DNA of 64,000 bases from an uncultured Gemmatimonadales bacterium. Its GTDB lineage: Bacteria > Gemmatimonadota > Gemmatimonadetes > Longimicrobiales > RSA9. The translations under genes and the position numbers were made by a program. Shown piece after piece: positions 43,359 to 50,699 of this stretch. The first letter of the stretch is position 1, and each line of letters starts with the position of its first letter. Under the pieces are notes generated by a model. That model had not been told where the DNA came from, did not search any database, and saw only the letters and a list, made by a program, of their open reading frames with translations. The stretch is from positions 1,600,001 to 1,664,000 of the forward strand of contig CAWCRS010000007.1 of the NCBI GenBank assembly GCA_963798085.1, read 5' to 3'.

Positions 43359-43388
43359 TTGACATATCAACAACAGTTGATATATAAT
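43359..43388 (+). promoter_or_regulatory. Consensus sigma70 promoter overlapped by a probable ArsR operator palindrome
   Basis: TTGACA(43359-64)-18 nt-TATAAT(43383-88); ATATCAAC-AACA-GTTGATAT at 43364-43383. Confidence 0.88.
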
Positions 43389-43393
43389 CCGGC

Positions 43394-43717
43394 ATGAACA
43401 GAACAGCGATACCCAATGCGATCATGCTGGAACGGCTGCAGGCGATTGCGGAAGTGACACGACTGCAGATCGTGCGGCTGCTGGGCGATGGCGAACGCTG
43501 CGTGTGCGAGTTGCAGAGCGCGCTGGACGCGGCGCAGTCACGGCTCTCGTTCCATCTGAAGAAGCTGAAGGATGCGGGCGTGATCGCGGACCGGCGTGAG
43601 GGACGGTGGATCTACTACGCGCTGGTGCCTGAGGCCATCGATGAGTTGCGCGAGTTTCTGGAGGTCATGAAACCGGATGTCACCACCACGGTCCGCACCG
43701 GTCCGTGCTGTGACTGA
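43394..43717 (+). CDS. arsR: ArsR/SmtB arsenic-responsive repressor
   Basis: ERCVCEL, QSRLSFHLKKL, RREGRWIYY, C-terminal CC. Confidence 0.93.
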   Translation: MNRTAIPNAIMLERLQAIAEVTRLQIVRLLGDGERCVCELQSALDAAQSRLSFHLKKLKDAGVIADRREGRWIYYALVPEAIDELREFLEVMKPDVTTTVRTGPCCD

Positions 43718-43738
43718 CCGCATACGGTGAGAGGGGCC

Positions 43739-44623
43739 ATGAGCGTCGACGTGAGGGCGGTTGTGCGTGAGAAGTACGGCGAGGCCGCGCGCCGCGCGGC
43801 GGAGGGAGAGAAGGGCTCGTGCTGCGGCACGCAGTGCGGCTGTGGTTCGGACGATCCGATCACGCGCGATCTGTATGACGCGCTGACCTCCTCACAGGTG
43901 CCGGAGGCGGCCATGCTGGCGTCGCTGGGCTGCGGCAATCCCACCGCGCTGGCGGAACTGCGGGAAGGCAATGTCGTGCTGGACCTGGGCAGCGGTGGCG
44001 GTATCGATGTGCTGCTGTCGGCGCGCCGCGTGGGCGCCACGGGCAAGGCGTATGGCCTCGACATGACGGACGACATGCTGGCACTGGCGCGGCGCAATGC
44101 AGCGGAGGCCGGCGTCCGCAATGTGGAGTTCCTGCAGGGCGAGATCGAGAACATCCCGCTGCCTGACAATTCGGTGGACGTGATCATTTCGAACTGTGTG
44201 ATCAACCTGTCCGGCGAGAAGCGACAGGTGCTGCGCGAGGCTTTCCGCGTGCTGAAGCCGGGCGGCCGGTTTGCGGTGTCCGATGTGGTGGTGCGGGGCA
44301 ATGTGCCGGCCGAAGTGCGGCGTAACATGGAGTTATGGGTGGGCTGCGTGGCGGGCGCGCTCGAGGAGCAGGAGTTCCGGGCGCTGCTGGCCGATGCCGG
44401 CTTCGCCGAAGCCAGCATCGAGCCGACACGCGTCTATCAGGTGGATGATGCGCGTGCGTTCCTGGAAGATGCGGGTCTCGACGTCGCTGCCTTTGCGCCT
44501 GCGATCGAGGGACGCTTCATGGCCGCGTTCGTGCGCGCGCAGAAGCCGGTCGCCAGGAAGCTGCAGGCTGCGACGCTGCCCCTGGCGAAGACGCCCTGCT
44601 GCGGACCGGACTGCTGCACCTGA
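43739..44623 (+). CDS. arsM: Arsenite S-adenosylmethionine methyltransferase
   Basis: SCC, SLGCGNP, LDLGSGGG, SNCVINL, LWVGCVAGA, tail CCGPDCC. Confidence 0.95.
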   Translation: MSVDVRAVVREKYGEAARRAAEGEKGSCCGTQCGCGSDDPITRDLYDALTSSQVPEAAMLASLGCGNPTALAELREGNVVLDLGSGGGIDVLLSARRVGATGKAYGLDMTDDMLALARRNAAEAGVRNVEFLQGEIENIPLPDNSVDVIISNCVINLSGEKRQVLREAFRVLKPGGRFAVSDVVVRGNVPAEVRRNMELWVGCVAGALEEQEFRALLADAGFAEASIEPTRVYQVDDARAFLEDAGLDVAAFAPAIEGRFMAAFVRAQKPVARKLQAATLPLAKTPCCGPDCCT

Positions 44624-44625
44624 CC

Positions 44626-45396
44626 ATGCGCTACGCGCTGCTCGCGGACATCCACGCGAACCTGCCGGCGCTCGAAGCCGTGCTCGCGCATATCGACCGG
44701 CGAGGCGACATCGATGCCGTCTACCATCTGGGTGACCTGGTGGGCTACGCGCCCTGGCCGAACGAAGTGGTGGCGTTGTTGCGGCAGCGGGGGATCGCCG
44801 GGATCGCGGGCAACTACGATTCCACCACGGGCACGGACTACAAACACTGCGGCTGCCGCTACGAGGATGCACGCCAGGAAGGGCTGAGCCATCTCAGTTA
44901 TGCCTGGACGCGGGCGCACGTGACCGCGTCCACGAAGCAATGGCTCGCCGGACTGCCGTTCCGCATCGACCTGCGCCCGCTGGGCGGACACCTGGCCGGA
45001 CCGCGACTCATGCTGGTGCACGGCAATGCCATCCTGAACACCGTGTACTGGACGGAGGACCGTTCGGACGAGTTCTGCCTGCAGATGGCGCAGCAGCTGG
45101 GCGCGCGGGCGGGCAATGTGGTGGCATTCGGACACACGCACCGGGCATGGCAGCGCGCCGTCGGCGACATCCATTTCGTGAACGCCGGATCGGTGGGCCG
45201 GCCGAAGGACGGCGACTGGCGGGCCGGCTACGTCACCATCGCCATGACCGGGCAGCGCACTGACATCGAGTTAGGGCGCGTGGAGTACGACCTGGCGCGC
45301 GCCGTGCGCGGCATCCGCGAGAGCGACCTGCCCGCTGCGTTCGCCACCATCCTGGAAACAGGGGGCCGGCTGACCAGTGCTGGCTCCGTCGGCTGA
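44626..45396 (+). CDS. Calcineurin-like metallophosphoesterase in ars operon
   Basis: [32 protein letters not shown]; extra HCGC motif. Confidence 0.9.
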
Positions 45397-45419
45397 CCCC
45401 GCCATGGCCGGCCAGCAGC

Positions 45420-46537
45420 ATGTCTGATGCGCGCCCGCGCAACGGCAGACGGCTCGGCTTCCTCGACCGCTACCTGACGCTCTGGATCTTCGCTGCCATG
45501 GCCGCAGGCATAGCCATCGGTTACCTGTGGCCGGCGGCCGTGGCGGCGTGGAATCGCGAGACGCAGGCGGGCACGACGTCCATTCCGATTGCGGCCGGTC
45601 TCATTCTCATGATGTATCCGCCGCTGGCCAGCGTGCGCTACGAAGAGCTGGGCGATGTGTTCCGCAACCGCAGGGTGCTGGCGCTTTCGCTGCTGCAGAA
45701 CTGGGTGATCGGCCCGCTGCTGATGTTCGGGCTGGCGCTGTTGTTCCTGCGCGCATACCCGGAGCTGATGACCGGGCTCATCCTGATCGGGCTGGCGAGG
45801 TGCATCGCCATGGTCATCGTCTGGAACGATCTGGCTTCCGGCGACGCCGAATACGCTGCGGGCCTCGTCGCCTTCAATTCGATCTTCCAGGTGCTCTTCT
45901 ACTCGGTGTACGCGTGGTTCTTCATCACGGCGGTACCGCACTGGCTCGGGCTCGGTGGCGCTGTGGTCCGCATCACCATGCGCCAGATCGCGACCAGCGT
46001 GTTCATCTACCTCGGCATTCCCGCACTGGCCGGTGCGCTCACGCGCTTTCTGCTGGTACGGGCGCGGGGCAGGACCTGGTACCACGAGCATTTCGTGCCG
46101 CGCATCAGCCCGCTGACGCTGGTGGCACTGCTGTTCACCATCGTGGTCATGTTCTCGATCAGGGTCAAGCGATCATTCGCCAGCCGCAGGCGGTCGTGCG
46201 CGTGGCGATTCCGCTGCTCATCTACTTCCTCGGCATGTTCACGATCACGTTCTTCATGAGCCGCAAGGCTGGCGCAAGCTATCCGCAGACAGCGACGCTC
46301 TCCCTCACGGCCGCATCCAACAACTTCGAGCTGGCGATTGCCGTGGCGGTGGGCACGTTCGGCATCGGGCACGGCGCGGCATTCGCCGCCGTGATCGGAC
46401 CGCTCGTGGAGGTGCCCGTCCTGATCATGCTGGTGAACGTGGCGCTGCGCTGGCGCGGGAAGTACTTCCCGGAAACCGCGGCCGCGATCGACAGCGTGCG
46501 CAACTGCGCCTTCCCCGCGGGAACCCCGGCGCCCTGA
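45420..46537 (+). pseudogene. acr3: Acr3 arsenite efflux permease with a 1-nt frameshift (possible sequencing error)
   Basis: [24 protein letters not shown] in one frame; [19 protein letters not shown] in another; one base missing near 46161; repaired length 372 aa. Confidence 0.9.
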
Positions 46538-46648: not shown

Positions 46649-47820
46649 TCAGACCTTGATCTTCCAGTAGGTGACGGTCCCGCCGTCCACGGCATCGGTG
46701 CCCGTCAGGGCCGTCTGCTTCGCGGGCGCCGGCTGCATGGTCCAGCACGCTGTCTCGGAGGCATCCGTGGATGCGTGCAGGAAGTAGTTCCTCGCCTTCA
46801 TGTTCGTGGGATTGGTGACGACCGAGTCCGAGACTACAATGTGGATGTGCGGTGCCCGCTTGCCGCCGGGGAAACCGTTGCTGAAAACACCAATGTTATG
46901 ATCGAGACAGATCTCCATGCCGAACGTAATGCCCTCGAATGGGATCCGTGAGGCCCAGCTTGTCGCCCGATACGAACACCGTGCTGCGGTCCCCGATGCA
47001 CTCGTGGAAATCGCCCATCTTGTTGTACTTGAAGCGCACCCGCCCGCCATACAGCAGATACGCGGTGTTGCGCATCATGTGCGTGGCCGCGCCGCCCGCG
47101 GCGGTCGCCTTCTTGGTAATCCGCGGAATCGTGCTGTAGCAGCTCGCGGGAAGGTTGTAGTCCGTAATGAGCTGTTTCAGAAACGGCTTGTCGTAGAGCA
47201 CGTCATCGACCAGTTCCCAGAACGCATCGGCCGCCGGCTTGCCGCCCGCCACGAGGTTGTTGAAGTCGGTGCCGAGGTTGTAGAAGTCGTTGTTGATGCA
47301 ATCGTCAATGGCGTCGACGAGTGGCGGCGCGGCCTTGCGCAGGCCACCCGTGTGGTCGGTGGACGCACCCAGCCGGACCACGTTCTTGGCGCGCCGGTCG
47401 GTCGTCTTCGCGATGCCCGTGCGCAGACCCGTAACCGGGTTCTTCTTCAGCGTCTCACCGGCTGGGCGGTCGAGCGGCTTGCGCCAGGCAATGGTCCCGG
47501 GCACCAGCACGATGTCAGGGTACTGCTCGCTCAGCTTGAGCAGCTGCGCCTGCAGCGTCTCCTTGTCGCGTTGCTCGATGGGCCGGCCCCGGAACCGATC
47601 CTGGCTGTCGCTCCATTTGCCCATCTTCGGGCTGGCGAAGTAGTACTCCGGCGCCACGAAGAATGCCGCGCATGCCGGCCTGACTGCCCAGACCATTGCT
47701 CATGATCCTGGATTGCAGCATGCCGAGTGCGGTCCGCAGGTGCGGCAGATTCGTACTCGGATCACGGGCCAGCGTGCCCGTCGAAGGTCGCGTCCAGAGT
47801 CCCGCAATGAGCGTAGGCAT
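46649..47820 (-). pseudogene. Divergent carbon-nitrogen hydrolase (nitrilase-fold) gene split by two +1 frameshifts
   Basis: Three ORFs join to give GIFVAPEYYF, MRNTAY, FKYNK, FGMEICLDH (E-K-C triad); GAGGTG RBS before ATG 47820; repaired length 389 aa. Confidence 0.75.
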
Positions 47821-47994: not shown

Positions 47995-48070
47995 GCCCCC
48001 GTAGCTCAGGTGGATAGAGCGGCGGTTTCCTAAACCGCGTCAGCCGCAGGTTCGAATCCTGCCGGGGGCA
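47995..48070 (+). tRNA. tRNA-Arg(CCT)
   Basis: Acceptor GCCCCCG/CGGGGGC, D arm GCTC/GAGC, anticodon arm GCGGT-TTCCTAA-ACCGC, T arm GCAGG-TTCGAAT-CCTGC; CCA not encoded. Confidence 0.93.
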
Positions 48071-48120
48071 CTCCCGCCGCAACAGCGGTAACACCCCGCC
48101 GGTCCGCCGTCCGGCCTCTT

Positions 48121-48185
48121 CCTCTTGACAGCCAAAGGAGCAACGGATGCAGGGTCCCGCACGCGACCTCTTGGCGGCCAAAGGA
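48121..48185 (+). promoter_or_regulatory. Duplicated quasi-palindromic site upstream of padR (candidate operator)
   Basis: CCTCTTGACAGCCAAAGGA (48121-39) and CCTCTTGGCGGCCAAAGGA (48167-85), 17/19 identical. Confidence 0.6.
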
Positions 48186-48191
48186 AGGTGC

Positions 48192-48517
48192 ATGGCAGAA
48201 TCCACCGATGTGATTCAGGGCACAATCGACATGCTCGTGCTCAAGAGCCTGAGCCTGGAACCCATGCACGGGTTCGGCGTGGACCGACGCATCGAGCAGA
48301 TCAGCCGTGGTGTGTTCCGCGTGAACCCGGGCTCGCGCTGCTCGTCTTTCGCCGGCTGGAGCGCGCCGGGCTCGTCAATGCGGAATGGCGGGCGAGCGAG
48401 AACAACCGGCGGGCCCGGTACTATCAGATCACAACCGGGGGTCGCAGGCGGCTGAGAACGGAGAAGGATGACTGGGCGCGGCGTGCCGCGGCGATCGCCC
48501 GCCTGCTGGAAGCGTGA
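48192..48517 (+). pseudogene. PadR-family regulator (acidobacterial type), frameshifted
   Basis: QGTIDMLVLK, PMHGFG, VNPGS, frame change near 48335, then RRLERAG, WRASENNRRARYY. Confidence 0.85.
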
Positions 48518-48706: not shown

Positions 48707-50699
48707 TCAGGATTGCGCCGCCGTGCCCGGCTGCAATTCCAGACGGCGGGTACCGCCATTCACAATCGAGTTCATCACCATCTCGTAGTGCAGGCCGCGG
48801 ATCGCGGACTCCAGTGCCTTCATGAAAGAGTGCCGGGAAAGCGGTGGTACCGCATGCGCGCTCTCTCAGGTAGCGTGCGGCCTGCTCGCAGACCGTGCGC
48901 ATGTCGTCCGCGGAGAGGAGTCCGTCCGGCAGCCGCTCGCGCGCGCCCGTCACCCACGCTCGCACCTGCTCGAGACCTGCTTCCGGCATGAAGCGAATGC
49001 GATAGTCATGGGCCAGATCGATGCAGCTGTTCGAATCCACTCGCGCAGGTCAGGTATTTCCACATCAGCGTTGGATCCATCCTGCGGATCAGCTGCATAA
49101 GCGTGCGCGCCTGCTTGCGGCTCTCGCGGTAGAAGCGCTGATCCAGCCGCGAGGCACGCAGCGAGCAATGCGAAATAATTGCGATCCAGCCGGCGGATAC
49201 CCTGTCGCCAGAAGGAAATCAGCGCGGCCTTCAGATAGCCCAATCGGAATTCGCGCGTGAAGAACATGTGCGGCGTCACGACCTGCAGCGTGCTTAGCGC
49301 TCTGCGATAGGATTCAGCCGGGTTGAAGAGCTGATAGAGGATGGAATGGATCCCGTCGCGCAGCTGCTCGCGCGTCAGGCCAACGGGCTCGAACTGGACT
49401 TCATCATCCGTGTTGTTGCCCGTGTACTCCGCGGGCAGCAACCGCCCCTCCTGTCGCAGACGCTCGTGCAGCGGCGTGTGCGGTACCGGCGTCAGCATGC
49501 CGACCATCGCCGTGAAGATGCGGTTTCTGCGGATGAACTCGATGATGCGGTCGGCGGTGGAGGGTTCGTCGCCATCATTGCCCAGGATGAAGCCTGCGAG
49601 CACTTCGATGCCGGCTGCCTGGATGCGCGCAACGGTTGCCGGTATGTCCACCTTGATGTTCTGCTTCTTGTTCATCCTGCGGAGCGCGTCTTCGTCCGGG
49701 TTCTCGATGCCGAGGAAGACGGCATCGAAACCGGCCAGCTTCATCTTGCCGATCAGGTGCTCCAGCTTCGGGGTTCCCAGATCCACGCTCGCCTGTGTGT
49801 GGAACGAAAACGGATAATCGTGCTCCCGCTGGAACCTGATCATCTCGTCGAGAATGTCGGAGATCGCATCCGGCTTGCCGATGAAGTTGTCGTCGACGCT
49901 GAAGATCGCGCCGCGGAACCCGGTCGCCAGGATCGCCTCCAGCTCGCGCCGGACGGAGGTCGGCGTCTTCGGCCGGTTGAACCCGCCGTTGAACTGGATG
50001 ATGTCGCAGAAATCGCAGCGGAACGGGCAGCCCGCGGTCGTCTGGATCATCAGCGTCTGGTAATCCTTGACGCGTACCAGATCCCAGCGCGGCAGAGGCA
50101 CGTCCTGCAGCGGCGTGAACACGGACCGGTCATTGAGGTGCTTGCGCGAGCCGGGCTCGACTTCCGCCACGGATCGTGGAATCAGCATCTGCGGCGTGTC
50201 GCTGCAGTGTTTCGGATTCGGAGTCCAGATACGCGAGCAGCTGCTCCATCGAACCCTGCGCTTCGCCCCACACGAGTACATCGAGACCGTCGTGCAGAAT
50301 GCGGTCCGATTCCGATTGTGGCTTCAGAATCGAGTCGCGATAGGATGAGGCGAACGGTCCTCCCAGCACGAAGGGCGTGTCCAGCCCGCGCGCCGGTCCG
50401 CTGAGGAGCGTGACCAGCGATCGCTTCTGAATCGACATGGCGCTGAGAAACACGGCGTCGGCTTCCGCGATCTTCTTCCTGAGAAAGCGATCCGACGGCG
50501 ATGTCACATTGAGATCGACAACCTCGAGATCCCAGTGGTCCGGCATGTAGCCGGCAAAGGTGAGCAGGCCCAGCGGCGGGAACGCCGCCTTCCGCCCGAT
50601 CAGCCGGATGATGTAACGGTAGCTCCAGAAGGAATCGTCGGGAAACTCGGGCGCAATGAGAACACCCTTCCGGCGAGGGCCTGCGGGATTGATACCCAA
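48707..50699 (-). pseudogene. B12-binding radical SAM protein (DUF4070 type), multiple frameshifts
   Basis: AAGGAGGTG RBS + TTG; PEFPDDSFWSY, FPPLGLLT, VLGGP, GCPFRCDFC, VDDNFIG, FLGIE; shift near 50220 and several in 48.8-49.2 kb. Confidence 0.85.

Follow-up and report, generated by a model that had tools for sequence, protein, structure and literature searches.

Car1, the arsenate (As(V)) reductase of Rufibacter tibetensis, needs Cys74 and Cys76, as stated in the available part of PMC12124457. The same part of that article describes Orf1, a metallophosphoesterase of ars operons that is approximately 40% identical to Car1, carries Cys74 and Cys76, and is called a putative As(V) reductase, while strain IIB4, whose operon reads arsR-orf1-acr3-arsM, methylates As(V) in culture (PMC12124457). 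Within the available parts of PMC6775490 and PMC6620896, the sole relevant content is a figure legend that uses the label 'MPE'. Here, we describe an arsR-arsM-metallophosphoesterase-acr3 operon at positions 43394-46537 of the window, that is, the whole stretch of 64,000 nucleotides that was analyzed, from an uncultured Gemmatimonadales bacterium (GTDB lineage Gemmatimonadota, Longimicrobiales, RSA9; assembly GCA_963798085.1, contig CAWCRS010000007.1, positions 1,600,001 to 1,664,000 of the forward strand). Sequence comparison indicates that this is very probably an ArsR-repressed arsenic detoxification operon from a soil bacterium in which the phosphoesterase is a Car1-type arsenate reductase in the role of ArsC. 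The gene and the segment on which this reading turns are as follows.

44626-45396, + strand: metallophosphoesterase, probable Car1-type arsenate reductase (256 amino acids; PF12850, 68.9 bits)
44809-44856, + strand: GNYD (residues 62-65) through Cys75-Gly-Cys77, aligned with GNYD and Cys74/Cys76 of Car1

The phosphoesterase aligns with Car1 over its full length with 42% identity and 59% similarity (263 columns, E = 2e-66). The Car1 reference (P0138; NCBI name 'arsenate reductase Car1 [Rufibacter tibetensis]', ALI98482.1 / WP_062542857.1) surfaced when a plasmid protein of Adhaeribacter served as the query for homologues. The identity is about the level (approximately 40%) behind the Orf1 assignment in the available part of PMC12124457. 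When Car1 was searched against this genome by tblastn, the phosphoesterase was the only significant match (194 bits, the next being 34.7). The motifs listed in an earlier note on this DNA are borne out by the residue positions: D8-I-H10, G36-D37, G62-N-Y-D65, H74-C75-G-C77, H132, and G169-H-T-H172. Among these, D8, H10, D37, N63, H132, H170, and H172 are the retained ligands of the binuclear metal site. GNYD aligns on GNYD, and C75 and C77 fall on C74 and C76 of Car1. As Car1 also has GNYD, this motif is a Car1 feature and not a quirk of the present protein; GNYD and a CxC pair occur together in all 120 of the 120 top protein matches.

The protein scores above the PF12850 and PF00149 cut-offs and matches no named NCBIfam family; it falls below the cut-off of the YfcE family TIGR00040 (47.9 versus 56.25 bits). 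Its predicted structure has a mean predicted local distance difference test score (pLDDT) of 94.6, and the best folds are the calcineurin-like phosphoesterases 3RQZ, 3QFM, and 1NNW. In the model, C75 and C77 lie in a loop between helices 63-70 and 82-98, and the block has a pLDDT of 85. Matches in the ESM Atlas were to 'metallophosphoesterase' clusters only, and no solved Car1 structure was among the sequence or fold matches. Full-length homology of the phosphoesterase to Car1 makes it most likely that the operon does possess an arsenate reductase. The earlier note had placed the protein outside any function known to it and had taken the operon to be without an arsenate reductase; neither view is supported, since a Car1-type reductase is already in print and most likely fills this role. 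Its guess of a non-ArsC reductase working through the CGC cysteines, which matches Car1 as described in the available part of PMC12124457, is probably right.

Car1 is matched in its calcineurin-like fold, its length (256 amino acids here versus 259), GNYD, the aligned CGC, and the metal ligands, whereas it comes from another phylum and another tree subclade. The cysteines of Car1 are at positions 33, 74, and 76; Cys33 has no counterpart here, and the present protein has an extra Cys151. Orf1 of Paraclostridium dentum IIB4 and 'T. petrolearius' IIB7/6C8 likewise shares an operon with arsR, acr3, and arsM and is proposed to supply As(III) to ArsM and Acr3, but its operon order is arsR-orf1-acr3-arsM and its hosts are anaerobic isolates (PMC12124457, available part). 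A metallophosphatase-family gene (MPase) also lies in the ars cluster of Deinococcus indicus DR1, with 1NNW, 2GJU, 3QFM, and 3RQZ as nearest structures; that cluster has two arsC genes, unlike the operon here, and the likeness is one of description (PMC9807832, available part). The ars-cluster homologue of Deinococcus sp. QL22 has GNTD, no cysteine pair, and 28% identity to Car1, and because the pair is missing, the Deinococcus ars-cluster phosphoesterases may be a different subgroup. Such proteins without the pair were seen at L089:4001-4720 (Deinococcus, GNTD) and L091:4001-4714 (Flammeovirga, GNHD), and the Car1 mechanism does not explain their role.

ArsC of the glutaredoxin type (PF03960) or the thioredoxin type (low-molecular-weight protein tyrosine phosphatase fold, TIGR02691) would share with the phosphoesterase a role in which cysteine thiols turn As(V) into As(III), whereas its fold is unrelated and the 256-amino acid protein matches neither ArsC family (no match to PF03960, PF01451, TIGR02689, or TIGR02691). 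The thioredoxin-type ArsC also derives from a phosphatase fold. The YfcE/MJ0936-like phosphodiesterases (PF12850, TIGR00040) and SapH (3QFM) have the fold and the binuclear metal ligands in common with the phosphoesterase, which differs from them by GNYD, the CxC loop, and the ars context.

In the Car1 study, the binuclear metal site reportedly binds arsenate and has weak phosphatase activity. The first cysteine is said to attack arsenate and the second to release As(III), leaving a disulfide that thioredoxin reportedly re-reduces. Applied to this operon, As(III) would release ArsR from its operator, the Car1-like enzyme would convert As(V) to As(III), and the As(III) would then be exported by Acr3 or methylated by ArsM.

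No arsC, arsD, or arsH lies within the operon (43394-46537), as the earlier note had said. Across the genome, which is 90% complete, neither PF03960 nor PF06953 has a match, TIGR02690 (ArsH) reaches just 36 bits against a cut-off of 292, and a thioredoxin-type ArsC query finds no match at 1e-25. Three PF01451 matches were considered as an ArsC elsewhere in the genome and rejected, as they look like tyrosine phosphatases. The two that were scanned score 70 and 55 bits as tyrosine phosphatases versus at most 33 bits for ArsC models, all below the cut-offs; the third is the tail of a 587-amino acid protein. By eye, the two extra cysteines of the ArsC at locus L018 are seen in none of the three.

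A survey of 300 genomes of the phylum counted Car1-like genes at E < 1e-50 and ArsC by one thioredoxin-type query from L018 at E up to 1e-25. Car1-like genes were present in 81 genomes and thioredoxin-type ArsC in 83, while both were present in nine, versus 22.4 expected. Co-occurrence was also low within family f5 (1 versus 8.9 expected) and family f4 (7 versus 12.7 expected). Mutual exclusion of this kind is what a shared substrate would lead one to expect; it is a tendency that fits replacement, not proof of it.

The genomic context of the homologues was examined with the best 80 of 275 relatives in genome contigs, nearly all from Gemmatimonadota by title, using a linkage window of 5 kb. 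GNYD and CxC are present in all 80, and a core ars gene (arsM, acr3, arsA, arsC, or arsN2) lies within the linkage window in 68, which supports the proposal in the earlier note of an enzyme dedicated to arsenic operons. When arsR and aquaporin-type genes are included, the count rises to 78; at the two loci without any ars-type neighbor, the upstream DNA amounts to just 580 and 59 bases. The neighbors include arsM at 47 loci, acr3 at 29, and arsC at eight, and the gene arrangement, which recurs across many genomes, is not a chance one. Two further sets of 20 loci each, one high-scoring and one low-scoring, were hand-picked from the match list of the phylum; 15 of the high-scoring loci have a core ars gene, one has an aquaporin-type gene only, and four have neither. 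For plasmids, 12 of 157 matching records were examined. Six of the 12 homologues have GNYD and CxC, and all six are in ars operons; of the others, two are in ars clusters without CxC, one has GCWD and CxC without ars neighbors, and three have neither. The Adhaeribacter plasmid carries arsR-arsN2-arsM-metallophosphoesterase-acr3, which is the order of the present operon plus arsN2, and its protein is 86% identical to Car1. A Paraclostridium plasmid carries arsR-metallophosphoesterase-acr3-arsM, with a homologue 39.8% identical to Car1.

Several observations weigh against a Car1-type arsenate reductase. At 42% identity, the substrate may have changed, and of the residues that define Car1 the comparison covers the two cysteines. 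In a quick IQ-TREE analysis of 91 rows, the phosphoesterase falls in a 15-row clade and Car1 in a separate 13-row clade (Shimodaira-Hasegawa-like approximate likelihood ratio test, SH-aLRT, support of 99 for each), but the two are joined only by unstarred forks with SH-aLRT values of 84 and 89, which also hold rows without CxC and a clade linked to radical SAM genes. The tree thus does not establish strict orthology to Car1, and the assignment rests on identity, motifs, best match, and context. Linkage to ars genes, which the earlier note had expected of GNYD and CxC homologues, stands for 68 of the 80 closest loci and fails elsewhere: the four close homologues of the high-scoring set without an ars gene within 5 kb all belong to one genus, and CxC is present in 16 of the 20 low-scoring loci, none of which is ars-linked. 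We therefore rejected GNYD plus CxC as a sufficient marker of ars linkage. Moreover, the Car1-like gene and arsC share one operon at eight of the 80 loci and on Rubrobacter, Hymenobacter, and Mucilaginibacter plasmids. Completeness of the genome stands at only 90%, the exclusion count treats related genomes as independent and uses one ArsC query, and neither gene was found in 145 of the 300 genomes.

All four genes of the operon are on the + strand, and their order, coordinates, and small gaps are as the earlier note gave them. The remaining features are listed below.

43359-43388, + strand: sigma70-type promoter, TTGACA-18 nt-TATAAT (12 of 12 consensus positions; one site versus 0.4 expected in shuffles)
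43364-43383, + strand: perfect inverted repeat (8-4-8) located between the -35 and -10 elements, probable ArsR operator
43394-43717, + strand: arsR repressor (107 amino acids; PF01022; NF033788, 94 bits, cut-off 55)
43739-44623, + strand: arsM, S-adenosylmethionine methyltransferase of As(III) (294 amino acids; NF008823 arsenite methyltransferase, 370 bits, cut-off 263)
45420-46537, + strand: acr3 arsenite efflux permease (TIGR00832), split by a one-base frameshift

The successive intergenic gaps are 21, 2, and 23 nt, the first being 9 nt if arsM begins at the alternative GTG at 43727. ArsR carries cysteines C36 and C38 and a C-terminal C105-C106 pair. The -10 element ends 5 nt ahead of the arsR ATG, and the arsR mRNA is thus probably leaderless. 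The 8-4-8 palindrome is the sole match in the window at up to two mismatches and did not occur in 100 shuffles. A similar ATCAA-N6-TTGAT palindrome was found at 57 of the 80 related loci (one mismatch allowed; no shuffle control) and, in the 25 related loci viewed, mostly stands directly behind TTGAC. The palindrome is the probable ArsR operator. A search for an intrinsic terminator at the operon found none.

Two other readings of the enzyme were weighed. One keeps the cysteine-pair reductase and changes its main or additional substrate to methylarsenate (MAs(V)), dimethylarsenate (DMAs(V)), or Sb(V), such that oxidized ArsM products would be made trivalent again, ready to be methylated further or exported. 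The presence of arsM within 5 kb at 47 of the 80 closest loci is in line with it, as is the placement of the phosphoesterase and Car1 in different subclades; furthermore, some operons retain the gene next to an arsC gene or a pair of them, where it would be redundant if both enzymes reduced only arsenate. However, throughout the phylum a tendency to mutual exclusion separates Car1-like genes from ArsC, arsM is missing from the 5-kb surroundings of 33 of the 80 loci (many contigs being short, however), and the present genome contains no further candidate for an As(V) reductase, which makes the reading unlikely. The arsM count and the occasional retention with arsC would fit a similarly unlikely proposal, in which the Gemmatimonadota branch of Car1 is an MAs(V)/DMAs(V) reductase that closes a reduce-and-methylate cycle with ArsM. 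We know of no identified bacterial gene for an MAs(V) reductase, and a search of the available literature for a methylarsenate reductase found nothing. If the proposal were true, the cysteine-pair phosphoesterase fold would have radiated into organoarsenic chemistry, a direction to which the radical-SAM-linked clade also points.

The other reading is of a genuine hydrolase, dependent on metal, whose targets would be arsenate esters or damaged nucleotides (ADP-arsenate, Ap4A-like) arising from arsenic stress, with cysteines that bind As(III) or are structural. All ligands of the binuclear site are kept, SapH (3QFM), an Ap4A hydrolase/phosphodiesterase, is among the closest solved folds, and some ars clusters (Deinococcus, Flammeovirga plasmids) also contain phosphoesterases without the cysteine pair. 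Yet arsenate esters hydrolyze spontaneously, which is established chemistry, and the histidine of the usual GNH(D/E) motif, the general acid, is a tyrosine here, as in Car1. An ATPase role was proposed without a test for the Deinococcus indicus phosphoesterase (PMC9807832, section 3.3, in the available part). On the opposite side, the cysteine pair is invariant in the 120 top matches and is reported, in the available part of PMC12124457, to be essential for the reductase activity of Car1. A hydrolase is therefore improbable, and the suggestion in the earlier note of an arsenate-ester or organoarsenical hydrolase finds no specific support. A third possibility concerns the whole operon, which might be decaying, with a truly broken acr3 and the phosphoesterase a passenger. 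The frameshift in acr3, which is absent from the earlier reading of the operon, is the ground for it: TIGR00832 positions 1-234 lie in one frame (302.5 bits, above the cut-off of 282.8 on its own) and 233-327 in another (125.6 bits), and comparison with seven intact relatives places the loss of one base near 46159. Nevertheless, the extra base is present in a 210-nt contig of sequencing run X1 that otherwise differs by one letter (depth 2.3, with a short side of 30 letters, one under the bridging threshold; X1 may be the source sample), and a crude census of 66 conserved genes in this assembly shows frame changes in eight, acr3 among them. Based on these two findings, the frameshift is probably an assembly error. 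Together with the intact promoter, operator, and other three genes, and an arrangement conserved in many genomes, this leaves decay with a very slight chance. No sequencing-run contig examined spans most of the phosphoesterase gene.

Downstream of the operon, further split genes are found, which are probable additional assembly indels. Two overlapping open reading frames (ORFs) without a Pfam match, perhaps one frameshifted gene, occupy 46649-47696 (- strand) and are followed by a tRNA-Arg(CCT) at 47995-48071 (+ strand). A PadR-like gene (labeled by eye) at 48147-48517 (+ strand) and a B12-binding radical SAM gene at 48950-50699 (- strand) are each split across two frames. A fixed chromosomal neighborhood was rejected, as apt lies near the homologue at two loci only and the downstream ORFs near none. 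Elsewhere in the genome, far from the ars operon, G000:C7:97026-97460 (L096) is a lone ArsN2-like acetyltransferase match with 40% identity.

Individual homologues depart from the common context. In one genus (L120, L122, L124, and L125), the homologues are 55-59% identical, keep CGC, and have no ars gene within 5 kb; the upstream neighbor at L120 is a class I/II aminotransferase (BioF/Kbl-like). In the group L126-L128, the Car1-like gene of L127 (L127:2890-7250) stands between polyphosphate kinase 1 and acr3, and neither arsR nor arsM lies nearby. A cyanobacterial plasmid (L088:4001-5568) has a GCWD and CEC homologue near folE, hemB, and a second metallophosphatase, with no ars genes, while a Mucilaginibacter ars operon (L086:5001-6493) has two tandem phosphoesterases, one with and one without CGC. 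Four of the 80 ars loci (L030, L045, L053, and L075) have a TIGR04282-like gene approximately 1.5-3 kb downstream of the Car1-like gene, and at L045 and L053 an aminotransferase-like ORF (labeled by eye) lies between the aquaporin and the TIGR04282-like gene. The 416-amino acid homologue P0052 has an added acetyltransferase domain (PF00583) and is probably an ArsN2-Car1 fusion.

The radical-SAM-linked sister clade comprises 16 of the 20 low-scoring loci (L098-L111, L116, and L117), and its members are approximately 30% identical to both the phosphoesterase and Car1. They keep GNYD and C-(R/Q)-C-G, while the first metal motif D-x-H is replaced by G-G-(V/I)-Y-(S/A)-N. A radical SAM gene lies within approximately 1.2 kb in all 16 loci (for example, L105:4025-5774). 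Four of these radical SAM proteins were scanned, and all fell below the NCBIfam cut-offs, the best scores being 97-105 bits for the Rv1681 family and 38-59 bits for ArsS. L103:264-9111 adds TIGR04282 and TIGR04283 arsenosugar-cluster glycosyltransferases above cut-off, along with a pyridine nucleotide-disulfide oxidoreductase, a VTT protein, and a solute symporter-like gene. The clade was not found in the genome of the window, and a literature search on it found nothing, though Shen et al. 2024 (the Car1 study; Mol Microbiol 122:201, doi 10.1111/mmi.15289) may cover it. Its phosphoesterase-like protein is possibly a reductase for organoarsenic biosynthesis, and of the results here it is this degenerate clade that may merit separate study.

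The enzyme type and its context with arsR, arsM, and acr3 are already in print, as the available part of PMC12124457 shows. What is added here is the frequency of Car1-like genes in the phylum, their tendency to exclude ArsC, and the sister clade; Shen et al. 2024 may already list Gemmatimonadota homologues and the operons that hold them. Car1-like genes are still labeled 'metallophosphoesterase family protein', have no NCBIfam model, and are overlooked by arsC-based surveys. Their frequency in this soil phylum matches that of thioredoxin-type ArsC (81 versus 83 of 300 genomes), for which they mostly seem to substitute, and for this reason arsC-only counts of arsenate-reducing and arsenate-methylating potential would be too low.

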